Virus record (IMG/VR): IMGVR_UViG_3300025073_000045
Span: 1-64,000 of that record
Origin: an uncultured virus (IMG/VR IMGVR_UViG_3300025073_000045)
Lineage: Duplodnaviria; Heunggongvirae; Uroviricota; Caudoviricetes
Direction: 5' to 3' (one strand)
Length of the DNA: 64,000 bases
In this document: piece by piece, positions 1-14,702 of the stretch
Position numbering within the stretch: the stretch's first letter is position 1
Layout of the letters: every line of letters starts with the position of its first letter
Notes under the pieces: generated by a model
Seen by the model: the letters and a program-made list of their open reading frames with translations, nothing else
Told to the model about the DNA's origin: nothing
Database searches by the model: none
Made by a program: the position numbers and the translations under genes

Positions 1-1178
1 TATGTGGAGCTCAAGGCACACAAGGAATTCAAGGCATTCAAGGATTATGTGGCCCTATCGGCTTATGCGGCTTAACAGGTAATTGTGGCCCTCAAGGAAT
101 TCAAGGAGTAACAGGTAATTGTGGCCCAATCGGCTTATGTGGAGCTCAAGGCACACAAGGAATTCAAGGCATTCAAGGATTATGTGGCCCTATCGGCTTA
201 TGCGGCTTAACAGGTAATTGTGGCCCTCAAGGAATTCAAGGAGTAACAGGTAATTGTGGCCCTCAAGGCATTCAAGGTGTAACAGGCAATTGTGGCCCTC
301 AAGGAGCACAGGGAATTCAAGGCCTATGTGGCCCTCAAGGAGCTCAAGGAATTCAAGGCCTATGTGGCCCTCAAGGAGCTCAAGGAATTCAAGGCCTATG
401 TGGCCCTCAAGGCATTCAAGGTGTAACAGGTAATTGTGGCCCTCAAGGAGCACAGGGAATTCAAGGAGTTTGTGGCTTAACAGGTAATTGTGGCCCTCAA
501 GGAGCACAGGGAATTCAAGGCCTATGTGGCCTTCAAGGAGCACAGGGAATTCAAGGCCTATGTGGCCCTCAAGGAGCTCAAGGAACTCAAGGAATTCAAG
601 GCCTATGTGGTCCTCAAGGCATTCAAGGTGTAACAGGCAATTGTGGCCCTCAAGGAGCACAAGGAATTCAAGGAGTTTGTGGCTTAACAGGTAATTGTGG
701 CCCTCAAGGAGCTCAAGGAATTCAAGGCCTATGTGGCCCTCAAGGAGCTCAAGGAATTCAAGGCCTATGTGGCTCTCAAGGAGCTCAAGGAATTCAAGGC
801 CTATGTGGCCCTCAAGGAGCTCAAGGAATTCAAGGCCTATGTGGCCCTCAAGGCATTCAAGGTGTAACAGGCAATTGTGGCCCTCAAGGAGCACAGGGAA
901 TTCAAGGAGTTTGTGGCTTAACAGGTAATTGTGGCCCTCAAGGAGCACAGGGAATTCAAGGAGTTTGTGGCTTAACAGGCAATTGTGGCCCTCAAGGAAT
1001 TCAAGGAGTAACAGGAAATTGTGGCCCTCAAGGAGCTCAAGGAATTCAAGGCCTATGTGGCCCTCAAGGAGCACAAGGAATTCAAGGAGTTTGTGGTCCA
1101 CAAGGCTCACAAGGAATTCAAGGAGTTTGTGGCTTAACAGGTAATTGTGGTCCTATTGGCTTATGCGGACCAAGTGGC
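1..1178 (+). repeat. Collagen-coding tandem repeat (9-nt unit, higher-order 135-nt duplication)
   Basis: nt 1-127 recurs at 136-262; caaggaattcaaggc and tgtggccctcaagg units are pervasive. Confidence 0.95.
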
Positions 1179-1538
1179 ACAAATGCTATAACAATTGTAG
1201 CAGGAGAAACTTTAGCAGCTGGAAACTTTGTTAATCTTTATTCAAATGCTGGTACAATTAATATGCGTAAAGCAGATAATACTGATAATACTAAACCTGC
1301 TCATGGTTATGTATTAACGGCTGTAACAAGCGGAAATAGTGGAGGATTTTATCAACTAACAGGACTAAATGACCAGTTAACAAGTTTAACAGTAGGTACA
1401 ATATATTTCTTAAGTACAGCGGGTGGAGTAACATCTACACCACCAACTACAGCTGGAAATTTGAACCAAGAATTAGGAATTGCAAAAACTACATCAGCAT
1501 TAGCGGTCTATGAAAGACCTACTATAACAATTGGATAA
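3..1538 (+). CDS. Cys-rich collagen-like fibre protein with a C-terminal DUF2190/capsid-cement-like domain (5' truncated)
   Basis: The frame starting at nt 3 reads CGAQGTQGIQGIQGLCGPIGLCGLTGNC... as uninterrupted Gly-X-Y to about nt 1178. It continues in the same frame as track ORF 1263..1538 (IVAGETLAAGNFVNL...KPAHGYV...GTIYFLSTAGG). Confidence 0.85.
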   Translation, partial: CGAQGTQGIQGIQGLCGPIGLCGLTGNCGPQGIQGVTGNCGPIGLCGAQGTQGIQGIQGLCGPIGLCGLTGNCGPQGIQGVTGNCGPQGIQGVTGNCGPQGAQGIQGLCGPQGAQGIQGLCGPQGAQGIQGLCGPQGIQGVTGNCGPQGAQGIQGVCGLTGNCGPQGAQGIQGLCGLQGAQGIQGLCGPQGAQGTQGIQGLCGPQGIQGVTGNCGPQGAQGIQGVCGLTGNCGPQGAQGIQGLCGPQGAQGIQGLCGSQGAQGIQGLCGPQGAQGIQGLCGPQGIQGVTGNCGPQGAQGIQGVCGLTGNCGPQGAQGIQGVCGLTGNCGPQGIQGVTGNCGPQGAQGIQGLCGPQGAQGIQGVCGPQGSQGIQGVCGLTGNCGPIGLCGPSGTNAITIVAGETLAAGNFVNLYSNAGTINMRKADNTDNTKPAHGYVLTAVTSGNSGGFYQLTGLNDQLTSLTVGTIYFLSTAGGVTSTPPTTAGNLNQELGIAKTTSALAVYERPTITIG

Positions 1539-1563
1539 TAAAAACCTAAATAAAGGAAAAAAT

Positions 1564-2517
1564 ATGTCAGACATCGTAAAAGAAGATAATAATCTTTTAT
1601 CAGTAATCAATCATTCATTATTTGGTTCTGATAGTAATACTAATAAGATCATTACAAGAGCAACAGATGAAAAATTCTTTGAATTAAAAGCACTTGATAA
1701 TGAGACTTTAACTAAGATAGCAGATTTTATGCCAGAAGTAAATAGAGCTACTAATTCATTTGGTAAGACTCAATCTCAATTTATGAATCATGCAATGACC
1801 ATTTCTTCGTTTGGTGTAATACGTAATTTACGTCAAGTGATGTCAGAAATTGAAAGAAGGAGACAAGCTCTTAAAGAAAATACTTTTAAATTAAAGAAAC
1901 AGATAATTGATTTAAAAGAAAAAGAAGAACAACTAAAAGAATTAGTAGAAAAGAATTTATATAATGATAGGTATAAAATTCTACGCCTTCAGATTGATGT
2001 AGAAGAGATTTCTTCAGGAATTACAGATTCAAGACTTTATATTGAGGGAGCTTTAAAAACTATTTACTCATATCAAATGGCATATCAAGATATGATGAAA
2101 AAGAATAATATTCCACCAGATTGGGATGAGAAGACTTTTGAAGAGGATGAAGAAAGGCATCATATAACAAAAGCTTTTCAACAAGCACATGCAGATATGA
2201 TAAGTACTGGTAGAATAGGTCAAGGTAATCATGAATATATGTGGCAATGTGGCATTAATCCACAATCTGCTTTTAATGATTTAGCAGAGTATATTAATCG
2301 TGAAAATATTGAATATACTAATTCAAAAGGTGTAGGGGTATTATCACCAAAAATAGATGGAAAACTTGAAATTGAAAGTTTCATAAAATTCTTGAATGAT
2401 ATGTATGCTAAATATAAAGGAAGTTCAAGAAAAATTCTTGAAATGAAAGGTATCAATGGTGATGGTTATTATGATGCAGCAGTATTTCATGATATTCAAC
2501 AAAAGACAGGTATTTAA
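1564..2517 (+). CDS. Coiled-coil phage protein next to the propeller genes (possible fibre assembly factor)
   Basis: AAGGA RBS precedes the ATG at 1564; the central part is a long heptad-rich helix. Confidence 0.7.
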   Translation: MSDIVKEDNNLLSVINHSLFGSDSNTNKIITRATDEKFFELKALDNETLTKIADFMPEVNRATNSFGKTQSQFMNHAMTISSFGVIRNLRQVMSEIERRRQALKENTFKLKKQIIDLKEKEEQLKELVEKNLYNDRYKILRLQIDVEEISSGITDSRLYIEGALKTIYSYQMAYQDMMKKNNIPPDWDEKTFEEDEERHHITKAFQQAHADMISTGRIGQGNHEYMWQCGINPQSAFNDLAEYINRENIEYTNSKGVGVLSPKIDGKLEIESFIKFLNDMYAKYKGSSRKILEMKGINGDGYYDAAVFHDIQQKTGI

Positions 2518-3492
2518 GTGTCAGAGTACAAAGTTTTAGCATTATATGATGGAATACCTCAAGAATTAAAATCAGGTGATACTGCAGTTATATCAAGACC
2601 ATTATGGTATGGTGAACGTGGAATTATGGGAGGAGGAGAACAACCAGATTGGGGATATTCTTATAATGTTATAGAGTATATTACAATAGCTACAACTGGC
2701 AATTCATCTGATTATGGTGATTTATTACAAAGATTAACTTATATTACTGCTTGCTCAAGCGGAACCAGAGGAATTTTTTCATGTGGTTTTAATTTAATGA
2801 CCGGTAATGTAAGCGTAAATGTTATACAGTATAAAACTATAGCTTCATCTTCAAATGCAGTTGATTTCGGAGATTATAGTACAGAAGCTTATGGTTTATG
2901 CTCAGTATCAAATTATACTAGAGGATTAATTGCTGGTACCGATAATAGAATAAATTATATTACTATTATGTCTTTTGGTAATACAGTTGATTTTGGAGAC
3001 ATGGCTATAGTTAGATATAATACACCTGCTGCAATCTCAAATGGAACAAGAGGACATTTTTGTGGTGGTACTACTACTGGGAATGTGAAAGTAAATAATA
3101 TTGATTATGTAACCATTATGTCTTTGGGTAACTCAGTTGACTTTGGTGACATAACCCAAGAAAGAATATCATTTTATGGATTAGGTGATTTAGTAAGAGG
3201 AATTTGTGCAGGAGGTCAAAAAGCAGGAGATGTTGGTTCTAATGTTATTGATTATATAACATTTTCAATTGCAAGTAATGCAACTGATTTTGGAGATTTA
3301 GTATCTGCAAGATTTGGTGTTAGTGCTACTAATAATGGCAGTAGAGGTATTATTTCTGGTGGACATGGTACTAACGTTATTGAATATATAACTATTCAAA
3401 CTATTGGAAATACAACTGATTTTGGAGATTTAATAAGTAGAGAAAGTGGATATCCAGGAATAAGATTTTCAGGCTCTTGTTCAGGAAATTAA
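2518..3492 (+). CDS. Kelch-like beta-propeller repeat protein 1 (putative adhesin/receptor-binding)
   Basis: About 6 copies of a ~46-aa repeat RG(I/V)FxGG...NVI(D/E)Y(I/V)TIATTGNxxDFGDL; ends in SGN. Confidence 0.75.
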   Translation: MSEYKVLALYDGIPQELKSGDTAVISRPLWYGERGIMGGGEQPDWGYSYNVIEYITIATTGNSSDYGDLLQRLTYITACSSGTRGIFSCGFNLMTGNVSVNVIQYKTIASSSNAVDFGDYSTEAYGLCSVSNYTRGLIAGTDNRINYITIMSFGNTVDFGDMAIVRYNTPAAISNGTRGHFCGGTTTGNVKVNNIDYVTIMSLGNSVDFGDITQERISFYGLGDLVRGICAGGQKAGDVGSNVIDYITFSIASNATDFGDLVSARFGVSATNNGSRGIISGGHGTNVIEYITIQTIGNTTDFGDLISRESGYPGIRFSGSCSGN

Positions 3493-3496
3493 AAAA

Positions 3497-4435
3497 ATGG
3501 CAGAATTCTTACCTCTAATATTAAAAAATGGTAAAATAGATAATTTATCTTTAGGAGATGGATACGTTAGTTTTAATAGTGCTCAAAATTGGGATAGAGG
3601 AATTTTTGCTGGAGGTGGGAATAATGTTATTGATTATGTCTCAATCTCACATAAAGGTAATGCAGCAGATTTTGGTGATGTTGATAATGGAGGTTATACA
3701 GAATCTCTTGGTGCTTGCTCAAGTGGAACTAGAGGGGTTTTTGCTGGCGGCAGAATACCAGGCTCCACTTATTCTGCTCAAATGATTTATATTACAATAG
3801 CTACTTTAGGTAATTCAACAAATTTTGGTAACTTAACTACTTCAGCAAGAAGGGCTATTTCAGGCACCACAAATAAAACAAGAGGAATTTTTTGTGGAGG
3901 TGATGATAACTCATCAATATATACATATATAGATTATATTACAATAGCTACTACTGGTAATTCTACTTCATTTGGATCATTATCATCTTTAGGATCATTT
4001 ACAGGTTCATGCTCTAATAATACTAGAGGAGTTTGTGCAGGAGGTTATGCTACTGGTTTTGTTGCTACAAATATAATTGAATATGTAACAATTGCTACAA
4101 CAGGAAATTCAACAGATTTTGGGGATTTAGTAAGAACTAGTACTTATACTTGTGTTGCTATTTCTGATTTAATTAAAGCTTTATTTTGTGTTATTGGATA
4201 TGCAGATTATGTTACAATAGCAACTACCAGTAATGCTTCTTATTTTAGTGGCTTAATTCCAGGTTCAGTTCAATACTCTTCTGGATGCTCTAATGGATTA
4301 TATGGAATAATAGGTGGTGGTACTAGTGATTCTACTATGATAATATTAGTAAATATTAATACTTCTGCCATGTCTGAAGATTTTGGAGATCTTTCATCAG
4401 CAAGATATTTTACAAGTGCTTTGTCTGGAAATTAA
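3497..4435 (+). CDS. Kelch-like beta-propeller repeat protein 2
   Basis: Same repeat as 2518..3492; ends in SGN. Confidence 0.75.
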   Translation: MAEFLPLILKNGKIDNLSLGDGYVSFNSAQNWDRGIFAGGGNNVIDYVSISHKGNAADFGDVDNGGYTESLGACSSGTRGVFAGGRIPGSTYSAQMIYITIATLGNSTNFGNLTTSARRAISGTTNKTRGIFCGGDDNSSIYTYIDYITIATTGNSTSFGSLSSLGSFTGSCSNNTRGVCAGGYATGFVATNIIEYVTIATTGNSTDFGDLVRTSTYTCVAISDLIKALFCVIGYADYVTIATTSNASYFSGLIPGSVQYSSGCSNGLYGIIGGGTSDSTMIILVNINTSAMSEDFGDLSSARYFTSALSGN

Positions 4436-4456
4436 ACCTAATAAAAGGATAAATAA

Positions 4457-5083
4457 ATGAAAGTAAACATATTAATTGGAACTCCTGCTTATAATAGTCA
4501 GATACATATTGACTATCTTAATTCAATTATCGATATGCATAGATTGAAGTTACCTATTTCAGTTATGTGTATAGGTAATGAAAGTCTTATTACAAGAGGA
4601 CGTAATACTATTATTTCTTTTTTCAAGACTCATGAAGAATTCACACATCTGTTGTTTTTAGATGCAGATATTGGTATAAAAGGTGACAGTATTATAAAGT
4701 TAATACAACATGAAAAAGATGTTATAGGTGCTCCTGTTCCATTAAAAGGTTTTGATTCAAATGGTAATAAAGTCTATAATATTACAAATCCAATTAAAGA
4801 AGAAAATCTTTATACAGTAGATAAAGTGGGAACGGCGGTTTTCATGTTATCAAGGAAAGCAGTTGAAGATCTTTGTAATAACTCAGATACTTATAATGGT
4901 AATACAATGTCAAGAGGTCTTCAGAATAATAATATTAATTATGATGTTTTCAAAACAGGAATTGAAAATGAGATATACTTAAGTGAAGATTATTATGCAT
5001 GCAAGAAACTTAAAGAATTAGGTTATAAAATATATATTGACGATACAATAATAACAATCCATAATGGAATGTTTCAATTTTAG
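4457..5083 (+). CDS. GT-A fold (GT2-like) glycosyltransferase
   Basis: Motifs ILIGTPAY, ESLITRGRN, HLLFLDAD (DxD), GTAVFML, LSEDYYAC, and a C-terminal H-x-G. Confidence 0.8.
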   Translation: MKVNILIGTPAYNSQIHIDYLNSIIDMHRLKLPISVMCIGNESLITRGRNTIISFFKTHEEFTHLLFLDADIGIKGDSIIKLIQHEKDVIGAPVPLKGFDSNGNKVYNITNPIKEENLYTVDKVGTAVFMLSRKAVEDLCNNSDTYNGNTMSRGLQNNNINYDVFKTGIENEIYLSEDYYACKKLKELGYKIYIDDTIITIHNGMFQF

Positions 5084-5092
5084 AGTAAGAAT

Positions 5093-6028
5093 ATGCCAGA
5101 AAAAATACCTCTCGTAGGAAAAGACGGTAAGATAATTGAACTAAATTGGGGTGATAGTTTAAAAAACAATTTAGTTTGGATTGGAGACAGAGGAATATTA
5201 GGATTTTTGGTTAATGATGCACTTACTGCATTAAATAATATAAGCTATGTAACCATTACATCAACAGGTAATGCGGCAGATTTCGGAGATCTTACTTTAG
5301 CTAGATATAGAGCAGCAGGTTGCTCAAGCGGAACTAGAGGAGTTTTTGCTGGTGGTGCTGTTACTTACAATGAAATAGACTATATTACTATTGCTACATT
5401 AGGAAATGCCATTGATTTTGGAGATCTTACTAATTCAATGAGTTTAGACATTTCTGGTTGTTCAAATACTATACGGGGTATTATATCTAGTAATGCTAAC
5501 TCACAAAGAATGGATTATATTACTTTTGCTACTAACGGGAATTCAATAAATTTTGGCAATATAACTGTTGCTAGAAATAATCCGAGCGGTTGTTCAAGTT
5601 CTATAAGAGGTATTTTTGGAGGGGGAAATTATGGTGGAAATTATAATACTATTGATTATGTAACTATAGCTTCATCTTCAAATGCAGTTGATTTTGGAGA
5701 TTTAACCGTTGCTAGAAATACTACTGGGGCTTCTTCTAATACTATTAGAGGCGTTTTTGGAGGAGGAGAAACTTCCACAAACATTATAGATTATATTACA
5801 ATAGCAACTACTAGTAACGCGGCAGACTTTGGAGATCTTACTTCAGCTAGAAATGGTGTAACTGGTTGTTCAAACTTGACACGCTCGTTATTTAATGGAG
5901 GTTATTCTGGTGGACCTCTTAATACTATTGATTATGTTACAATAAATACTCTTGGAAATGCAGTAGACTTTGGTGATATTAATGCTGGTGTATATTCATA
6001 TACAAGTGTTGCTTTTTCAGGAAATTAA
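5093..6028 (+). CDS. Kelch-like beta-propeller repeat protein 3
   Basis: Same repeat (IDYVTIASSSNAVDFGDL); ends in SGN. Confidence 0.75.
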   Translation: MPEKIPLVGKDGKIIELNWGDSLKNNLVWIGDRGILGFLVNDALTALNNISYVTITSTGNAADFGDLTLARYRAAGCSSGTRGVFAGGAVTYNEIDYITIATLGNAIDFGDLTNSMSLDISGCSNTIRGIISSNANSQRMDYITFATNGNSINFGNITVARNNPSGCSSSIRGIFGGGNYGGNYNTIDYVTIASSSNAVDFGDLTVARNTTGASSNTIRGVFGGGETSTNIIDYITIATTSNAADFGDLTSARNGVTGCSNLTRSLFNGGYSGGPLNTIDYVTINTLGNAVDFGDINAGVYSYTSVAFSGN

Positions 6029-6040
6029 AAGGAGATTAAA

Positions 6041-6694
6041 ATGATATATTTTATTTATAAAACACTACAGATTACTGGTATTGGAGGAGTCTCTATACCA
6101 ACTATTGATGGGATAAATGGAGGACAAGGCTCTTATAAAGAATGGTTATTGGGTACTACAGATTCTGCTTTAAAACTTTCCCAGATTAAAGAATTTCAAC
6201 CTAGAATATTAAAAGAAGAAATTTGGAGAGGCTTATCTCTTATTGGATTACTTCAAGTATTTGATACTTCAATGAATCAATTAAGAAATCTAACTCCAAC
6301 AGAAATTATATATCAAAAAGCTGCTACTAATTGGGAATTTAAAGAAAATGCAAGAAATTTGATTGAGATAACAGTTGGTGATCCTCTTAAACAAATAGCT
6401 AATGTGGATCAGCAATCTCAATTAACTACTCCTGTAATAGTTAGAATGTATAAATTAGTATTAGCTTTATATGCTCATTTAAGCTTGGCTATCCCTGAAG
6501 ATATCTTGCCAGCAGCAACAAAATCGCAGTATGATAATTTTACAGATTTATATTTATATAAAATAGGATCATTACAATTAATTGACAGGATTGATGTTGA
6601 TCCAGATCCAGCTGCTCTTATTGATGATGTATTAACCAATATCCATAACATTGGTTTAGCTCTTAAAACTGAGTATTATGATAAAAAGGTATAG
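6041..6694 (+). CDS. Hypothetical protein (possible fibre-associated chaperone)
   Basis: AGGAG RBS; 217-aa ORF directly after the propeller genes. Confidence 0.55.
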   Translation: MIYFIYKTLQITGIGGVSIPTIDGINGGQGSYKEWLLGTTDSALKLSQIKEFQPRILKEEIWRGLSLIGLLQVFDTSMNQLRNLTPTEIIYQKAATNWEFKENARNLIEITVGDPLKQIANVDQQSQLTTPVIVRMYKLVLALYAHLSLAIPEDILPAATKSQYDNFTDLYLYKIGSLQLIDRIDVDPDPAALIDDVLTNIHNIGLALKTEYYDKKV

Positions 6695-6695
6695 T

Positions 6696-7283
6696 ATGTT
6701 TAAATGTGGTAGTATTGTACTCGTAAATAATAAAAAAAGTTTATTTAGCAAAATAATTAAATGGGTTACTAGTTCTAATTATTCACATTGTGCTATTACT
6801 ATGGGTAATCTTATACCAAAAAGTGAAAGTATATTGACTGCAGAATGGTTTATACTAACACACCCTCTTCAAAGATATTTTGAAAATAAAGATTATGATA
6901 TTGAAATATATGAAATTCAAAATATTGCTGAACAGGAATTAGAAAACATTGTAATTGATTTATACAATGCTCGTGTTAACAGAGGCTATGCTTTTTGGCA
7001 AAACTTATGGTTCATATATAGATATTTGATTGCCGAAAAATTAGGTTTTGATGTTAGAAGACAAGGAAATTGGTTTCCAAAAAGTGATAATTGTTCAGAA
7101 GAAACTTATGATTTATTAAAGAAAGTTACAGAGGTATCAGTACACATTAATACTAAATTAATACCAATGGGGTATAAATTATCTGAATGGAATAGTAATT
7201 GTTTCAGTCCAAAAGATGCAAAAATTATCATTAATAAATTTCCAGAGAATTTTAAACTAGCTTACGAGAGCAAAAATGCTTAA
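6696..7283 (+). CDS. Permuted papain-like NlpC/P60 (YiiX/YebB-like) enzyme
   Basis: His precedes Cys: IIKWVTSSNYSHCAI ... Y ... DNCSEE ... SPKD. The ATG at 6696 is preferred over 6678. Confidence 0.7.
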   Translation: MFKCGSIVLVNNKKSLFSKIIKWVTSSNYSHCAITMGNLIPKSESILTAEWFILTHPLQRYFENKDYDIEIYEIQNIAEQELENIVIDLYNARVNRGYAFWQNLWFIYRYLIAEKLGFDVRRQGNWFPKSDNCSEETYDLLKKVTEVSVHINTKLIPMGYKLSEWNSNCFSPKDAKIIINKFPENFKLAYESKNA

Positions 7284-7300
7284 CATTAGAGGATTTAAAA

Positions 7301-7768
7301 ATGTGTGAAATATTAGATGAAAAAATTGAGAATACAAAAAAGATATCATCAGCTATTTCTGAGCTAGTATCTACAATGACAAGTAATAAGCATTCAGTTT
7401 TTTTCTTAGAAACTTTAATGGATAATATACCTATTATGGTATTTTTTAAGGATACTAATAATAGATTGATAAAAGTAAATAAATATTTCTGCGATTTAGC
7501 TGGCACAACCAAAGATAAGATTGAGGGTAAAAGAAGTGATGATTTTGCAGAAACAGAACATGAAAAAGAATTAGTTAAACATTATGGAGAGAATGATTTA
7601 GATGTAATTAATTCTAAAAAACCAAAACTTAATATTATAGAGAATTTCTTTAATACAAATATACAAATAAGAACGCATAAATTCCCAATTATTCAGAATG
7701 ATGAAGTAGTGGGGGTTTTTGGCATTAGTATTGAACTAAATACACTTAATCATATTGGAGTTCACTAG
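7301..7768 (+). CDS. Stand-alone PAS (PAS_4/PAC) domain protein
   Basis: LETLMDNIPIMVFFKDTNNRLIKVNKYFCDLAG...IEGK...D..VI...THKFPIIQNDEVVGVFGISIE fits the PAS-PAC pattern; GAGG RBS. Confidence 0.85.
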   Translation: MCEILDEKIENTKKISSAISELVSTMTSNKHSVFFLETLMDNIPIMVFFKDTNNRLIKVNKYFCDLAGTTKDKIEGKRSDDFAETEHEKELVKHYGENDLDVINSKKPKLNIIENFFNTNIQIRTHKFPIIQNDEVVGVFGISIELNTLNHIGVH

Positions 7769-8178
7769 TGGAACAAAATCAACTTATTGATAAGCTTATT
7801 TCATTACTTGAAAATAAGCTTGTGTCTATAGATGAAATAATTTCATCGTTTCAAGAAAAAGTTACTACTGCTGAGAAAGACATTATTAAATTCAGAGGAG
7901 ATCTTGATAAACTACAAGATAAATTGTCAACTCACGCTGATTCTTGTCCAATTAATAAACCTATAATTAGTAAAATGGTTTCTGATGCTATTATTATTGA
8001 ATTAGCTAAAGTGCCAGATAAAAGAAGATCACGAATGGTTGAGTGGTCTGTTATATTAGCTACACTTATTTCATTAGTGGTTTTTATATTTGGTCTTTAT
8101 GAAAGTAGTAAAAATAATAATAGTATTCAAGAATTAAAAGAAACTAATAAAAAATTAGAAAAATTAATAAATCGTTAA
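7768..8178 (+). CDS. Coiled-coil plus single-TM membrane protein (holin/antiholin-like)
   Basis: The GTG start overlaps the PAS gene TAG; TM segment WSVILATLISLVVFIFGLY; lies upstream of the endolysin. Confidence 0.55.
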   Translation: MEQNQLIDKLISLLENKLVSIDEIISSFQEKVTTAEKDIIKFRGDLDKLQDKLSTHADSCPINKPIISKMVSDAIIIELAKVPDKRRSRMVEWSVILATLISLVVFIFGLYESSKNNNSIQELKETNKKLEKLINR

Positions 8179-8187
8179 GAGGATTAA

Positions 8188-8640
8188 ATGAAGATAAAAG
8201 ATATCTTTACAACAGCGAAAGAATCTACTAAATTATTAATTATTGCTTTAATAATAAGCTCAATAGGTAGATTTTATATCAACACTTTTTTAGTTCCAGA
8301 TCAGAAAGCTTATGCAGATGAGATCTCAAAGATCGAAAATCAGATTAGTTCTCACTATGATGCAAAGACTAGATCTTATGATAATATGCACATTGTGAAC
8401 AGTCTACAGAAAAAAGTTATTAATCTTCAATATGACGTTCAAAAGACTATTTTAGTAGAAGTATCATTAACATCTTTAATATTATTGACTATTGCAAGTA
8501 TATTAGCTTGGTGGACACAATACATATTTACTGATATTAATTTTAAGACTGAAACTAAATTACATACTGTTTTAGCTGCAGCACTCATTGGTTCAATTTT
8601 TATTGTAGGCTTAGTTTACTATGTTAAAACATCTTATTAA
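8188..8640 (+). CDS. Three-TM membrane protein, putative holin
   Basis: Three hydrophobic segments; overlaps the endolysin start. Confidence 0.55.
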   Translation: MKIKDIFTTAKESTKLLIIALIISSIGRFYINTFLVPDQKAYADEISKIENQISSHYDAKTRSYDNMHIVNSLQKKVINLQYDVQKTILVEVSLTSLILLTIASILAWWTQYIFTDINFKTETKLHTVLAAALIGSIFIVGLVYYVKTSY

Positions 8641-9121
8641 AATATTTCTTGTTTGTTCTGTTTTAACAGCACAGAGTATTACTCCAGTAGGCTTAGACTT
8701 AATCAAGCATTATGAATCTTTTAAGTCTGAAGCCTATTTATGTCCAGCAAAAGTATTGACAATAGGATATGGCTCAACAGGCACACATGTAAAAGCTGGG
8801 ATGAGGGTCACAGAACTACAAGCCACTTTATTATTAAAAAAAGATGTAAAAAGATTTGAATCTCATATTAAAAATAGAGTAAGTAGACTTTTAATATGGA
8901 ATGAATTTGACGCATTAACCAGTTTTACATTTAATGTAGGTTATCGTGTTACTAAAGGTTTACAAACCTTTGTAAACCAAGGTAATACTAATGGTGTAAT
9001 AATGAAATTAATGCAATATAATAAAGCTAAAGTTAATGGAGTCTATATTATATTAAAGGGTTTAACAAAAAGAAGAATAAGTGAATCAACTTTATATAGA
9101 GATGGAGTTTTAGCATGGTAA
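8621..9121 (+). CDS. GH24 phage lysozyme (endolysin) with an N-terminal export signal
   Basis: E32-x8-C41-x5-T47 triad (HYES..AYLCPAKVLTIGYG), FDALTSFTFNVG, GLTKRRISE. Confidence 0.9.
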   Translation: MLKHLIKIFLVCSVLTAQSITPVGLDLIKHYESFKSEAYLCPAKVLTIGYGSTGTHVKAGMRVTELQATLLLKKDVKRFESHIKNRVSRLLIWNEFDALTSFTFNVGYRVTKGLQTFVNQGNTNGVIMKLMQYNKAKVNGVYIILKGLTKRRISESTLYRDGVLAW

Positions 9122-9645
9122 GAAGAATTGCTCCTAGTCAGATAGCCAATGCAGTAAGTGGCCAACCAAATGGTATTAGAACTGCTTATGCATACGATGA
9201 ATCATTTGGTTGTAAGAAGAAAAAAGTAATTGCTAATGCTTGTAAACCTAAAAAAGGACATACTGGAGTACAATCATCCACTGGCTCAAAAGGGTTATCA
9301 GGTCATCAAGGCTCACCTGGAAAATCTGGATTATCAAGAGTATCAAGCTCTTATTATTATGATCCACTAAAAAATCCTAAAGAGGCTCATATTACTAATG
9401 CAAAAAAATCTCCTATGGCTCGTGTTGGTAAATCAAACGGCCGCTGGAAAGGTGGTGTTAGTAAAACTTATTATAGAAGGATTGCAGGAGCAAAACCAAA
9501 TGATGGTACAATTGTTCATCACAAAGACCATGACAAGAAAAATCCAAGTAGGAAAAATCTTGAAAAAATAAAACCTGGCAAGAAAATCTCTGCTAGAGGT
9601 AAACATAATCAAAGACATCCAAACAGGCGAAATGGTAAAGCATAA
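9115..9645 (+). CDS. Basic HNH-motif protein
   Basis: GKSNGRWKGG and IVHHKDHDKKN..RKNL...H...H. Confidence 0.65.
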   Translation: MVRRIAPSQIANAVSGQPNGIRTAYAYDESFGCKKKKVIANACKPKKGHTGVQSSTGSKGLSGHQGSPGKSGLSRVSSSYYYDPLKNPKEAHITNAKKSPMARVGKSNGRWKGGVSKTYYRRIAGAKPNDGTIVHHKDHDKKNPSRKNLEKIKPGKKISARGKHNQRHPNRRNGKA

Positions 9646-9785
9646 TGTTATCTCAGATGTGTAAAAAATGTAATATACCAAAACCTATCGAAGACTTTCC
9701 ATTTAGTCCTTCAAAAAAGAAGCATGGTATTAATCTAATTATATTCAATACTGAACAAGAAGTGTTTAGTATTATTGAGGATTAA
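9645..9785 (+). pseudogene. 46-aa ORF, probable internally deleted endonuclease remnant
   Basis: TAATG overlap; translates as MLSQMCKKCNIPKPIEDFPFSPSKKKHGINLIIFNTEQEVFSIIED; absent from the ORF track. Confidence 0.5.
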
Positions 9786-9787
9786 AA

Positions 9788-10045
9788 ATGACTCCTGAAG
9801 TAAAAAAACAAAGAACTGAAAAAATCATTGAGTTATTAAGGCCTATGATTGAAAGAGCTATATCAATTAATGAAGATACACCTTCGGGAATTGAGATTCA
9901 TAAACCAATAGCTTTTTTACTTGAGAAATTTAATACTGGTAAATATTATGGTACTATAGAGATGAAAATCACTGGTACTAGTATTCATAATCCAACTGAA
10001 AATAATGTAACACACAGACTTGATATGAGTTATCAAATTGAGTGA
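9788..10045 (+). CDS. Hypothetical protein
   Basis: GAGG RBS, 85 aa. Confidence 0.65.
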   Translation: MTPEVKKQRTEKIIELLRPMIERAISINEDTPSGIEIHKPIAFLLEKFNTGKYYGTIEMKITGTSIHNPTENNVTHRLDMSYQIE

Positions 10046-10898
10046 TAATTTAGGTAATAGGTTAGAAAGAGTACAAAAGGGGAAAAGTCAATCTGACGCT
10101 GTAACTATGCAGCAATTTATAGATCATGTACAGAATATTCATAATCCTCACAAAGTAAAACAAGATCAAATTGGATTAAACATTCCAGATATAGATTATG
10201 ATCTTTTATCAGAATTTGAAACGCTTAAGTTAAATTTAATGGGTATAGAATGGGCTCAGTTTGCATTTTATGACACATTTATTGATGAATCTTTGAGAGA
10301 GACTCCAGACCCATCTTCTTACCGTGCATTAGTTGAAAATGGCAAACTGAAAACAAGAGATATCACTCCTTCTAAAGTTTTTGTATTCTTATCAAAAACA
10401 TATACAGAAGTAAATGTCTTAGATTCTGGAATTTCAACAAATGTAATATCAAATACTTTGACTGACAGTTCAAAAACTTGGTGGATAAATCAATTTAAGA
10501 ATCTAGTCTTAGAAGATAGTGGATTAGTAACATATAATATACTTTCAAATACATCTAATGTTCTTACTCTTAATGGAAGTCCATCTTTTGGTGCTTATAA
10601 AATAAAAGCTGATTATCCTCAGAGAATGGTAGGTTTTGCTAATTATATTGACAGTACAAATGATGAGGATGGTAAAGGTTATTGTAAATTAGAAATAACA
10701 TTTAACAATGGTTCTACTTGGTTTACATTACTTGATACTCAAAGTGCTGTAAACAATCTAAATAAAGTAATTGATATTTCAGCTTATTCAACAGGAACAG
10801 TTAAAGTAAGAATTACAGTATCAAATGATGTAAATGGATTTGGTCCTCAATTTAGTAATTTTCTTATTGCAGCTGATCCTACTATTTGGAAGTTTTAA
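10038..10898 (+). CDS. Virion structural / fibre-base protein
   Basis: HxxNxxNPHxVxxxQIGL motif typical of phage fibre proteins; beta-rich C-terminus. Confidence 0.6.
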   Translation: MSDNLGNRLERVQKGKSQSDAVTMQQFIDHVQNIHNPHKVKQDQIGLNIPDIDYDLLSEFETLKLNLMGIEWAQFAFYDTFIDESLRETPDPSSYRALVENGKLKTRDITPSKVFVFLSKTYTEVNVLDSGISTNVISNTLTDSSKTWWINQFKNLVLEDSGLVTYNILSNTSNVLTLNGSPSFGAYKIKADYPQRMVGFANYIDSTNDEDGKGYCKLEITFNNGSTWFTLLDTQSAVNNLNKVIDISAYSTGTVKVRITVSNDVNGFGPQFSNFLIAADPTIWKF

Positions 10899-13800
10899 AT
10901 GCCAATTATAATTGAACATAGTCAAGGATATTTAGTAAAACAGAGATTAATAGATGAGAGTAACTCTGCAGTATCAAGTGGTGATTGGGCTACAGTTTCT
11001 ATTGGTGGTAATTCAATTGATGTTACTAAAAGAACTAATATAGTTGTTTATCCAACTGCAGATACTGATATTAATTCTTTTGGTGGAGGGATAGATGCTC
11101 AAAGAATTGTATTAGTAAATGGCTCAAGTTCATATGATTTGAATATGAAGCTTTCTGTTATTGGGCATGATTCTACTTTTGTCTTATTACCTGGTCATTC
11201 TGCTACTTATATTTATAATGCTGCAACTTATGTATGGGCATTTGAAGGTACTTCAGAATTTATTGGGGAAATGAAATATATTTATATGCGAGCAGCTACT
11301 CAACCAATAACTCCTGATTTTGAAGATTATGTTCCAGTTGATTGGTTTGCTGTTCCTCCAGAGCCTAATATTGATGAAGATCCTTTATGGATGTCATTTG
11401 CAGTTGTCGTTGGAGTAAAACCAAAAGGTAATTGGGCAACACCTTTACAACTTGATGGTGTTGTTGGACTTTGTGGTCCTGCTGGCTTATGTGGATTAGT
11501 TGGTTTTTGCGGTATTCAAGGCTTATGTGGCCCTCAAGGTGTTCAGGGAGCTCAAGGAGAAGTTGGAGCTTGTGGTGTACCTGGCCTTTGTGGCCCTCAA
11601 GGTGTTCAGGGAGCTCAAGGTGTTGTAGGTTTTTGTGGTGTTCAAGGCTTATGTGGCCCACAAGGTGTTCAAGGAGCTCAAGGTGTTGTAGGATTCTGCG
11701 GTATTCAAGGCTTATGTGGCCCTCAAGGTGTTCAGGGAGCTCAAGGTGTTGTAGGTTTTTGTGGTGTTCAAGGCTTATGTGGCCCTCAAGGCGTTCAAGG
11801 CTCTCAAGGCATTCAAGGATTATGTGGTCAAACAGGTTTATGTGGCCCTCAAGGCGTTCAAGGCTCTCAAGGTGTTCAAGGATTATGTGGTCAAACAGGT
11901 TTATGTGGCCCTCAAGGCGTTCAAGGCTCTCAAGGTGTTCAAGGATTATGTGGTCAAACAGGTTTATGTGGCCCACAAGGTGTTCAAGGAGCTCAAGGTG
12001 TTCAAGGATTATGTGGTCAAACAGGTTTATGTGGCCCTCAAGGCGTTCAAGGCTCTCAAGGTGTTCAAGGATTATGTGGTCAAACAGGTTTATGTGGCCC
12101 TCAAGGTGTTCAAGGCTCTCAAGGCGTTCAAGGACTATGTGGCCTTATTGGCTTATGTGGTCCTCAAGGCGTTCAAGGCGCTCAAGGTATTTGTGGTCCA
12201 CAAGGTTCACAAGGTATTTGTGGCCCTCAAGGTAATGCAGGTATACAAGGAATTGATGGAGAGCAAGGCCCACAAGGATATTGTGGAGCTCAAGGTCCAA
12301 GAAGTTGGTCTTACTCTATTGCTCAAAATACAAATTTATGGGTTATGTTTGGGGTAAATCATGATAATACTGGGGCAGATTATATAACTACTCATACGCC
12401 AATTATATCAACATTATCTATAAATAGTGCAATCTTTATGTTATTTAATCCTATTTCAAATAAACATTATTTGATGTGGTCATTAAATGCATGCACAATT
12501 ACAGTTACATTAGATGGAGTTTCTCAAACTATATCTCCAAACACAAATGGAGAAGGTTCACTAGAATTAACTAGTGGTTGGGCTTTACTTACTGTGTCTC
12601 AATCTGGCGAAGCAAATGAATTCCGCTTTTATGATTGGACTCTTAATACATATGCTGTACTTGATAATGGTATTTCAGTCAATATACGCCCTGGTGGTCC
12701 AAAAGGGGCTGTTGGAGATTGTGGCCCTCAAGGAGCCTGTGGTTTAGTTGGTAATTGTGGTGCACAGGGAATTCAAGGTTTATGTGGCATACAAGGCACA
12801 CAAGGAATTCAAGGCCTATGTGGCCCTCAAGGAGCTCAAGGAATTCAAGGCTTATGTGGCCCTCAAGGCTCACAAGGAATTCAAGGCAGTTGTGGTTTAC
12901 AAGGCTTATGTGGTATACAAGGAGCTCAAGGAATTCAAGGCTTATGTGGCTCTCAAGGCTCACAAGGAATTCAAGGCTTATGTGGCCCTCAAGGCTCACA
13001 AGGAATTCAAGGTAATTGTGGCCCTATTGGCTTATGCGGAGTTCAGGGTACACAAGGAATTCAAGGCTTATGTGGCCCACAAGGTGCTCAAGGAATTCAA
13101 GGAGTTTGTGGCCCACAAGGTGCTCAAGGAATTCAAGGTAATTGTGGCCTTCAAGGTTTATGTGGAGCTCAAGGCACACAAGGAATTCAAGGCTTATGTG
13201 GTCCACAAGGTGCTCAAGGTTTATGTGGCATACAAGGCACACAAGGAATTCAAGGCTTATGTGGCCCACAAGGTGCTCAAGGAATTCAAGGTTTATGTGG
13301 CCCACAAGGTGCTCAAGGAATTCAAGGAGTTTGTGGCCCACAAGGTATTTGTGGTATACAAGGCCAACAAGGACCTCAAGGTTTATGTGGACAACAAGGC
13401 GCTCAAGGTATTTGTGGTATACAAGGCCAACAAGGACCTCAAGGTTTATGTGGACAACAAGGCGCTCAAGGTATTTGTGGTATACAAGGCCAACAAGGAC
13501 CTCAAGGTTTATGTGGACAACAAGGCGCTCAAGGTATTTGTGGTATACAAGGCCAACAAGGACCTCAGGGTCCATGTGGTCCTTGTGGAGCTCAAGGAAT
13601 TCAAGGAGCTCAAGGACCTACAGGATTCTGTGGTGGTCAGGGTGTTTTAGGTACAGTATTAGCTTCTGGTGTAACAATAAATGCAGGTGGATATTTTAGG
13701 ATAGGATCTGGAGATAAAGATGATACTTTGACTGGTATTTGGATAGATGATACTGAAATAGTAGCTCAAGATGGAAATGGTACAGATACTGTACGTATAG

Positions 13801-14702
13801 GAGTTGATGGTTCATTTTATGCTATTAAAGGCACAATAGCAGGATTCACCATAGAAGAAACATGGTTATATACTGGAACTATATCAACTACTAAAATTGT
13901 AATTAATGCTGCTTCTGACTCAATCTATGCAAGACCTTTGGGTGCTGGAGCTAATACTAAGTATGTAATGCTAGGTCAAACCCATGATGGTACAAACTGG
14001 ACAGGTAACTATGGAATAAGTGCTGTCGATGGTAGTAATAGAATGCTTTTTAGAATTGATGATTCTGTTAAATCAATTGCTGGTTGGAATTTTGACTATC
14101 AAAGCTTTTCAAATATCACAACTGGTACTGGTATTGAATTAAGTGTTGGTACTACAAAAAATGTCACTACAGGATTTTCAGTTTTTAATCCTTCAAGTCC
14201 AAAATTGTTTATTGGAGACTCAACCTATTTTTTAGATTGGAATAATGGAAGTGGAAGTGGTACTACTGGTAAATTAACTATAAAAGGAGATATTATAGGG
14301 AGCAGGTTTTCCACCGAATCTACAAATGTTTTTGATGGTTCTAATGGTACTTATGCTTCACTACATCATGTGAGTGGAACTCCTATTTTATTTATGGAGA
14401 AATTTACTGATACTAGTAATTATACTATTGTGAACTTTACACCTGGTTCAATAGTAAATAGTGTAGCTGGATTTTTATATGCTACTTTAGTAAGTGCTGG
14501 AACTACAATTGGTTTAATAGAAATGGGTTGTGGGAATACAGCTGATTCTGCTTTTATAAAAATTGATAGTATGCATGTTGCTAGATGGAGGGGAAGATTT
14601 GCAACTGATCCTACTACTAATAATAGAGAAGGTGATATGGGATATCACACTGGTACTTCGGTAGTTAGATTATATACTAATGGTGCTTGGACAAATGTAT
14701 AA
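10899..14702 (+). CDS. Long fibre protein with two Cys-rich collagen blocks and a beta-rich C-terminal domain
   Basis: Gly-X-Y blocks at about 11457-12302 and 12696-13653 separated by a ~130-aa globular insert. The C-terminus has GTIAGFTI / SIAGWNF fibre motifs. Confidence 0.85.
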   Translation: MPIIIEHSQGYLVKQRLIDESNSAVSSGDWATVSIGGNSIDVTKRTNIVVYPTADTDINSFGGGIDAQRIVLVNGSSSYDLNMKLSVIGHDSTFVLLPGHSATYIYNAATYVWAFEGTSEFIGEMKYIYMRAATQPITPDFEDYVPVDWFAVPPEPNIDEDPLWMSFAVVVGVKPKGNWATPLQLDGVVGLCGPAGLCGLVGFCGIQGLCGPQGVQGAQGEVGACGVPGLCGPQGVQGAQGVVGFCGVQGLCGPQGVQGAQGVVGFCGIQGLCGPQGVQGAQGVVGFCGVQGLCGPQGVQGSQGIQGLCGQTGLCGPQGVQGSQGVQGLCGQTGLCGPQGVQGSQGVQGLCGQTGLCGPQGVQGAQGVQGLCGQTGLCGPQGVQGSQGVQGLCGQTGLCGPQGVQGSQGVQGLCGLIGLCGPQGVQGAQGICGPQGSQGICGPQGNAGIQGIDGEQGPQGYCGAQGPRSWSYSIAQNTNLWVMFGVNHDNTGADYITTHTPIISTLSINSAIFMLFNPISNKHYLMWSLNACTITVTLDGVSQTISPNTNGEGSLELTSGWALLTVSQSGEANEFRFYDWTLNTYAVLDNGISVNIRPGGPKGAVGDCGPQGACGLVGNCGAQGIQGLCGIQGTQGIQGLCGPQGAQGIQGLCGPQGSQGIQGSCGLQGLCGIQGAQGIQGLCGSQGSQGIQGLCGPQGSQGIQGNCGPIGLCGVQGTQGIQGLCGPQGAQGIQGVCGPQGAQGIQGNCGLQGLCGAQGTQGIQGLCGPQGAQGLCGIQGTQGIQGLCGPQGAQGIQGLCGPQGAQGIQGVCGPQGICGIQGQQGPQGLCGQQGAQGICGIQGQQGPQGLCGQQGAQGICGIQGQQGPQGLCGQQGAQGICGIQGQQGPQGPCGPCGAQGIQGAQGPTGFCGGQGVLGTVLASGVTINAGGYFRIGSGDKDDTLTGIWIDDTEIVAQDGNGTDTVRIGVDGSFYAIKGTIAGFTIEETWLYTGTISTTKIVINAASDSIYARPLGAGANTKYVMLGQTHDGTNWTGNYGISAVDGSNRMLFRIDDSVKSIAGWNFDYQSFSNITTGTGIELSVGTTKNVTTGFSVFNPSSPKLFIGDSTYFLDWNNGSGSGTTGKLTIKGDIIGSRFSTESTNVFDGSNGTYASLHHVSGTPILFMEKFTDTSNYTIVNFTPGSIVNSVAGFLYATLVSAGTTIGLIEMGCGNTADSAFIKIDSMHVARWRGRFATDPTTNNREGDMGYHTGTSVVRLYTNGAWTNV
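11457..13653 (+). repeat. Two collagen-coding repeat arrays containing 63-nt higher-order units
   Basis: GLCGQTGLCGPQGVQG(S/A)QGVQ occurs about 5 times; GICGIQGQQGPQGLCGQQGAQ occurs about 3-4 times. Confidence 0.95.

Follow-up and report, generated by a model that had tools for sequence, protein, structure and literature searches.

A stand-alone PAS protein gene paired with a coiled-coil membrane protein gene next to the endolysin of an uncultured tailed phage

The PAS gene and its neighbours

The window analysed here comprises the first 64 kb (64,000 nucleotides) of record IMGVR_UViG_3300025073_000045, an uncultured tailed phage (Caudoviricetes), and our subject is a gene in it which encodes a stand-alone PAS protein, overlaps the gene of a coiled-coil/transmembrane (TM) protein (from here on the partner) and precedes a three-TM protein and an endolysin (Table 1). 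All of these genes, as well as the TAGTG overlap between the first two, lie where a first-pass annotation, made from the letters of the window, had placed them. The source record measures 77,451 bp (CheckV completeness 63%), other contigs from the same phage are longer (121-123 kb), and the GC content is 31%. Genes on the + strand between 6678 and 9645 are tightly spaced, either overlapping or separated by at most 18 nt, which is also the gap between the papain-fold gene and the PAS gene. No terminator-like sites were found in 4000-11000, and a promoter scan gave background numbers (52 found versus 45.1 ± 6.8 expected).

Table 1. Genes and features around the PAS gene (positions in the window; aa, amino acids)
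Feature	Position	Strand	Evidence
YiiX/C92-like permuted papain-fold protein, 201 aa	6678..7283	+	PF05708 1.1e-5, phrog_1128 2.1e-9
Stand-alone PAS protein, 155 aa	7301..7768	+	Pfam, TIGR00229, phmmer, AF2, Foldseek
TAGTG stop/start overlap	7766..7770	+	TAG 7766-7768, GTG 7768-7770; direct sequence reading
Coiled-coil/TM partner, 136 aa	7768..8178	+	Hydropathy, AF2 model, 7-sequence alignment
Three-TM protein, 150 aa, holin candidate	8188..8640	+	Hydropathy
GH24 endolysin, 166 aa	8621..9121	+	PF00959, phrog_7

The PAS gene has an ATG startcodon with an AGGA 7 nt upstream, and its product scores above the curated Pfam cut-offs for PAS_8 (28.0 vs 21.8 bits), PAS_9 (28.3 vs 27) and PAS_4 (23.2 vs 23.1), as well as above that of TIGR00229 (sensory box, 33.1 vs 22.9). 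While the Pfam matches are confined to residues 35-96, the first half of the domain, the domain itself is complete, because the phmmer alignments reach approximately residue 147 and the modelled fold and its structural matches agree with this. A phmmer search against 1.84 billion representatives gave 11,274 matches at E≤1e-3, aligned over residues ~35-147, and the AlphaFold (AF2) model, made with 11 relatives (predicted local distance difference test score, pLDDT, 80), has helices at residues 2-28 and 30-41, after which comes a five-stranded PAS fold of the canonical kind at 46-145 (strands 46-51, 55-59, 109-115, 122-132 and 135-145). Foldseek gave 411 matches in the PDB at E≤1e-3, and the top matches listed were PAS/LOV domains (BvgS, NifL, LOV and VqmA PAS domains, probability 1.00), with the Aer PAS domain also among the matches. 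The protein terminates 10 residues past the PAS fold, and neither a kinase (HisKA/HATPase) nor a helix-turn-helix (HTH) or other output domain was found at Pfam E≤1 and NCBIfam E≤0.1. The first-pass description of a short helix plus a PAS domain, with neither kinase nor DNA-binding output, is thus right for the domain and the missing output, but the helical part is not short, at about 40 residues.

The GTG startcodon of the partner gene has a GGAG 7 nt upstream and shares a single G with the TAG of the PAS gene; an identical 136-aa product is present in the database (P0151). In the AF2 model (pLDDT 75) the partner consists of two long helices (residues 2-57 and 64-135) with a break at 58-63, the second helix running into the single hydrophobic TM segment, which lies near the C-terminus at about 90-112 (hydropathy marks residues 90-108) and is followed by a short tail. 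Alignment of seven partner sequences, with an overall identity of 20-31%, left only M1, C60 and P61 as invariant columns; Cys60-Pro61 falls exactly at the predicted helix break, and Cys60 is the sole cysteine in 6/7 sequences. As the TM segment has basic residues in front of it and a signal sequence is absent, the coiled coil is probably cytoplasmic, like the PAS protein. The partner has no Pfam family above cut-off and belongs to a small family of six database clusters, and in the ESM Atlas it resembled only unnamed phage clusters (121-126 aa, score 0.91, a value which chance reaches 4-10 times in 100). Membership of the XhlA family (PF10779) was rejected, with no match of the partner at E≤10 in a six-frame search of the whole 77-kb record, where PF10779 matched only the SbcC-like coiled-coil gene, and none in the Pfam scan at E≤1.

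The product of the three-TM gene, which overlaps the endolysin start by 20 nt, has hydrophobic segments at residues 18-36, 88-106 and 128-146. It has the layout of a holin, being small, with at least one TM segment and adjoining the endolysin gene, and matched no described holin family or other family at significant E in Pfam, PHROG and NCBIfam. Sub-threshold matches to SLATT_4 (16.5 bits vs a cut-off of 55) and FtsX (19.6 vs 25.5) were rejected. Its only homologue is on contig L003 (25% identity, with a common LAWWxQxIFT motif). The endolysin is a clear Phage_lysozyme (PF00959 5.1e-30, 104.8 bits; phrog_7 7.2e-34), shares 48% identity with the endolysin of L003, and has an N-terminal hydrophobic export segment at residues 5-23, which may be either a signal peptide or a signal-arrest-release (SAR) segment. 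Both endolysins (7249-7749 in L003) have exactly one cysteine in the N-terminal hydrophobic segment and a second in a conserved YLCP directly after the catalytic-Glu region. The SAR lysozyme of phage P1 is disulfide-caged, and the pattern seen here recalls that enzyme, but with two cysteines versus three in P1.

Conservation of the gene pair and its fused counterparts

Relatives of the PAS protein were located with an alignment-based scan of viral contigs and with degenerate motif scans of metagenome, genome and viral contigs. This gave eight distinct lineages (the window, L003, L008, L009, L010, L011, L012 and L015), a count which is a lower bound and possibly biased, as motif scans detect only members retaining the chosen motif; several of the contigs are short, and L001, L013 and L014 were left out as copies of the window's own phage. 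Among the best 150 of the 11,274 phmmer matches, seven besides the query are stand-alone proteins of 139-152 aa, with 34-41% identity to the PAS protein over its whole length, N-terminal helix included; the other 142 are longer (267-4799 aa), and in most of them several PAS stretches are matched. Searches further afield yielded little: a word-index search for similar proteins recovered, among 33 candidates, nothing but the PAS protein itself, tblastn against 50,697 GenBank phage records gave one weak match (E 0.3), blastn with the cassette drew a blank in those records, and scanning viral contigs with the three-TM protein and with the partner brought up just the two contigs already known.

The two genes, PAS and coiled-coil/TM, are conserved as a pair. 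The first-pass annotation had named a lack of conserved linkage among the things that would speak against its reading, and such linkage was found: a homologue of the partner lies directly downstream of the PAS gene in 7/8 lineages (partner hidden Markov model, HMM, E 1e-32 to 1e-42). Where both gene ends are visible the junctions measure -1, -1, +15, -4, -11 and +20 nt. We use the term pair for a gene of the PAS subfamily followed within 20 nt by a coil plus TM gene with a Cys-Pro hinge, as is the case in 7/8 lineages, the window included. A mirror-tree comparison over five lineages gave r = -0.01, all lineages being about equally distant from each other (PAS 34-42%, partner 21-34%).

An endolysin lies two to three genes downstream in four lineages (window, L003, L010 and L015), behind small membrane proteins, and these endolysins come from three enzyme families. 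L003 has the homologue of the three-TM protein followed by a GH24 endolysin with signal peptide, while L015 has two unrelated small TM proteins and then an Amidase_3 endolysin (PF01520 1.9e-20; phrog_435 2.2e-28). L010 has an unrelated 4-TM protein and then a 182-aa protein which has no Pfam match and groups with SLT/muramidase clusters in the ESM Atlas (feature score 0.95; structural TM score 0.69, which reaches the level set for SLT). For L008 and L012 one or two small multi-TM proteins follow the pair before the contig ends. The TM proteins between pair and endolysin are not homologous across all loci, and the genes upstream of the PAS gene differ in every lineage, so it is only the downstream lysis context which has been kept.

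The reverse comparison started from the endolysins. A scan with those of the window and L003 gave 58 viral loci (30-100% identity), and in 48 of these the sequence extends 1.5 kb or more upstream of the endolysin. HMMs of the PAS protein, the partner and the three-TM protein, run over the 2,296 open reading frames (ORFs) of the 58 loci, each matched only L020 (the window phage) and L021 (the L003 contig). With the pair present in 2/48 related GH24 endolysin loci, it is an optional addition and not a core part of the lysis cassette.

Single-chain proteins with similar parts are encoded by cultured phages. Gp089 of Cellulophaga phage phi14:2 (KC821624.1, 209 aa) combines a TM segment (residues 8-26) with a coil and a PAS domain; its match to the PAS subfamily HMM (6.3e-12) includes the region equal to the N-terminal helix of the window protein. 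Its gene overlaps that of gp088, a GH19 glycoside hydrolase, and a protein with an N-terminal TM segment follows. The public names are 'PAS domain-containing protein' for gp089 ('PAS fold protein' for g078 in RefSeq) and 'endolysin' for gp088 in RefSeq. Gene 249 of Chryseobacterium phage MA9V-2 ('regulatory protein') encodes the same TM-coil-PAS architecture (HMM 6.7e-10) and lies two genes from a GH108 protein, amid lipoprotein-like and TM proteins. A scan with gp089 found only phi14:2 and one truncated relative, and a literature search for functional studies of the two PAS proteins found none, only annotation. The PAS domains of both are probably cytoplasmic, as basic residues come after the TM segment. 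The fused proteins thus resemble the window pair in having a homologous PAS domain, one TM segment, a coil, and a position beside an endolysin and small membrane proteins, but they are single polypeptides with an N-terminal anchor, whereas in the window two overlapping genes encode the parts and it is the C-terminus of the partner which carries the anchor. Moreover, neither matches the partner HMM (A5) at E≤10, and gp089 has no cysteine in its coil.

Other relatives are linked to receiver (REC) domains. Upstream of the PAS-partner-TM-SLT-like cassette in L010 there is a stand-alone receiver gene (4094-4582, Response_reg 1.1e-11) which overlaps the PAS start by 8 nt, and P0150 is a 267-aa REC-PAS fusion with 46% identity to the window PAS protein. 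In L004, a 54-kb viral contig, the region 4877-7865 encodes a 694-aa protein with four or more PAS domains, whose gene is translationally coupled to that of a stand-alone REC; two small coil plus TM proteins, which do not match the partner HMM, precede it. The + strand of this 12-kb locus, listed for ORFs of 70 aa or more, showed no lysis genes, and L004 looks like a separate phage signalling module.

Other genes in the window

The neighbourhood consists of tailed-phage genes, with collagen-like tail fibres, a capsid/protease-like gene, DNA polymerase, primase, SbcCD and a UvsX-like recombinase. The papain-fold protein upstream of the PAS gene scores slightly below the PF05708 cut-off (26.0 vs 27 bits); it could be a second wall-active enzyme or could be unrelated, and whether it is part of the lysis cassette is uncertain. 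On the other side, 9115-9645 overlaps the endolysin stop and encodes a highly basic 176-aa protein (40 K+R), which has a short stretch resembling collagen and, below threshold, a match to HNH_3 (20.5 vs 24.8 bits). No spanin candidate was recognised behind the endolysin in the window; L003, L010 and L015 differ from it in having a protein with an N-terminal TM segment at that place.

Giant tail-fibre-like proteins with Cys-rich collagen-type repeats (G-x-C-G-x-Q-G) are encoded at 3-1538 and 10899-14702, and these repeats also yield long spurious ORFs in other frames or on the opposite strand (11365-11976, 11471-12235 and 11761-12357). Three further ORFs at 2518-3492, 3497-4435 and 5093-6028 encode products of 311-324 aa. 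Those of the second and third have Gly-rich repeats of the type 'IDY(I/V)TIAT-GN--DFGDL' in common, and those of the first and third match phrog_19111, a family with no function assigned, while the 3497-4435 product had no PHROG match at 1e-5.

With regard to the host, the genome contig L014 (121,445 bp) represents the same phage, with identical ORFs in the part equal to window positions 1-10000, and was deposited within a metagenome-assembled genome labelled Candidatus Nanoarchaeia. As a secreted GH24 muramidase points to a bacterial host, this placement suggests an artefact of binning and not a virus of archaea. The Flavobacteriia phages with fused relatives are only a hint at the host of the window phage.

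Possible roles of the pair in lysis

We favour, as a roughly even call, the reading that the two proteins form a split, membrane-tethered cytoplasmic PAS module which belongs to the lysis cassette and modulates holin triggering. Gene structure, PAS fold, conserved pairing, the repeated position before TM proteins and unrelated endolysins, the optional distribution and the fused forms are all observed, and further points in favour are the full-length signature of the PAS subfamily, the varying upstream genes, the invariant Cys-Pro and the links to REC domains. On this reading the PAS gene and the overlapping coiled-coil/TM gene would be one conserved functional unit of the cassette, the PAS protein assembling with the tail-anchored partner, probably by contact of its N-terminal helix or β-sheet with the partner's coiled coil. 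This module would target the membrane step of lysis, the likeliest point being where the downstream holin-type protein or proteins are triggered, with the PAS domain as input so that lysis timing could be tuned to a cytoplasmic cue; in relatives with a receiver domain a phosphorylation input would lie upstream of the PAS domain. The effect on lysis might be either a delay or an advance. The split pair could then be seen as the two-chain counterpart of the single-chain TM-coil-PAS proteins beside the endolysins of Flavobacteriia phages. The first-pass suggestion that the PAS protein and the coiled-coil membrane protein make up a split sensor thus gains from the linkage, and also because such single-chain proteins adjoin endolysins in cultured phages, while sensing and contact between the two chains are what we infer.

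Several points weigh against this reading. Binding, sensing and an effect on lysis are read wholly from genomic context, and regions adjoining lysis genes are hot spots for unrelated late-expressed accessory genes. No LOV NCRFL-type motif or conserved His was visible by eye in the PAS alignment (A6), the domain offered no identifiable cofactor motif, and PAS domains without any ligand are common. The partner had no significant match to a holin, antiholin or spanin family (best PHROG 5.9e-5 to 1.5e-3, over TM/coil segments), and a weak search for longer or fused PAS-partner forms among longer proteins found none. Furthermore, two lineages give no view of lysis genes: in L009 the PAS gene is followed by a coil plus TM protein which does not match the partner HMM and then by a replication-like gene, in L011 the pair is followed by a 248-aa soluble protein with no assigned function, and no lysis gene was found within the 1.4 kb and 0.9 kb at hand, respectively.

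An alternative which we consider unlikely, albeit not far-fetched, is that the partner is itself a required lysis effector, an XhlA-like co-holin, and that the PAS protein is merely its cytoplasmic binding partner or inhibitor and senses nothing. The partner has the XhlA-like layout of a probably cytoplasmic coil and one C-terminal TM segment, directly before a holin-type protein and an endolysin, and weak PHROG matches to 'hemolysin' phrog_1193 (0.005) and 'holin' phrog_1296 (0.0015) point in the same direction. PMC5589764 gives the same order for the Bacillus subtilis PBSX XhlA-XhlB-XlyA system, with a small coil and single C-terminal TM protein directly before holin and endolysin; it describes XhlA as working with the holin XhlB, as a membrane protein predicted to be synergistic with it, and all three genes as required. 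However, the XhlA model does not match the partner even at the permissive threshold given above, and XhlA comes from a Gram-positive host and has neither a PAS partner nor a Cys-Pro hinge. The absence of the pair from 46/48 related GH24 cassettes also makes it dispensable for that type of lysis, and a mere structural partner would leave the coupling to REC domains unexplained.

Unlikely to a similar degree is that the pair has nothing to do with lysis and is an accessory expressed late ('moron'), such as a membrane-anchored decoy of host PAS-kinase/receiver signalling or a superinfection exclusion device. This would fit with the nearest non-phage relatives being PAS repeats of multi-PAS proteins (570-4799 aa), with the REC domains associated in L010 and P0150, with the multi-PAS plus REC module of L004, which has no lysis genes among its listed ORFs, and with L009 and L011. 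It does not account for the pair preceding TM proteins and non-homologous endolysins while the upstream genes vary, or for the fused TM-coil-PAS genes which overlap or flank endolysins in two groups of cultured phages, and the identity to kinase PAS domains is only about 24-36%, so that a particular host domain has not been captured recently. The host histidine kinase decoy, offered in the first-pass annotation as its second option, is disfavoured by this low identity (about 30%) and by the obligate membrane partner, and we keep it only as one form of the accessory explanation. That the adjacency was simply inherited in one ancestral block and has no functional meaning is very improbable: all four genes are common to the window and L003 (34, 28-32, 25 and 48% identity), so that these two count as one event, but L010 and L015 have other TM proteins and endolysin families behind the pair, which requires either replacement inside the block or independent insertion at lysis cassettes, and the fused proteins of crAss-like and jumbo Flavobacteriia phages add more cases independent of these.

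If the pair is indeed a module acting on holin triggering, two known phage systems offer partial parallels. In T4 lysis inhibition the holin T is controlled by the antiholins RI (periplasmic) and RIII (cytoplasmic); accessory proteins adjust holin triggering upon a signal, and a cytoplasmic component acts on a membrane protein. Differences are that no homology was detected, that T4 is not known to have a PAS domain, that its signal is superinfection, sensed in the periplasm, and that the T4 genes do not form a coupled pair in a cassette. The nearest concept in print is VqmA_Phage of vibriophage VP882, reportedly a PAS-HTH receptor for quorum sensing which, as a transcription factor, acts on the lytic switch, and thus a phage PAS sensor which ties host killing to a small-molecule cue; the VqmA structure 7dwm_A was among the Foldseek matches of the PAS model (rank 14, TMq 0.60). 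VqmA, however, has a DNA-binding domain and acts on transcription, whereas the window PAS protein has no output domain and lies in a lysis cassette with a membrane partner. We found no published description of a PAS protein in a phage lysis cassette, in a search of titles and abstract openings which covered few subscription-journal papers. In public annotation the fused genes already go by the name of PAS proteins, so that the general theme is not unique to the window; its particular features are the split two-gene form, the tail-anchored partner and the invariant Cys-Pro hinge. The pair most likely belongs with the accessories and regulators of phage lysis.

A bolder possibility, and a distinctly unlikely one, is that the pair is a lysis clock for redox, haem or energy state, in which the PAS domain and the Cys-Pro hinge would read the redox or energy status of the host and hold or release the holin, in some phages with an additional phosphorylation input via the receiver domain. 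Cys-Pro is the dipeptide of haem-regulatory and thiol-switch motifs. Were this the case, the moment of lysis would be chosen from host physiology and not from holin accumulation alone. The split form offers two separable parts and an invariant Cys-Pro for mutation, and the fused form in the cultured phage phi14:2 provides a tractable test system. For a phage, the time of lysis is a central life-history trait, which is attributed to holin accumulation together with a few antiholin systems, and a sensor in the lysis cassette would mean that some phages, apparently including Bacteroidota phages, read the state of the cell before bursting it.

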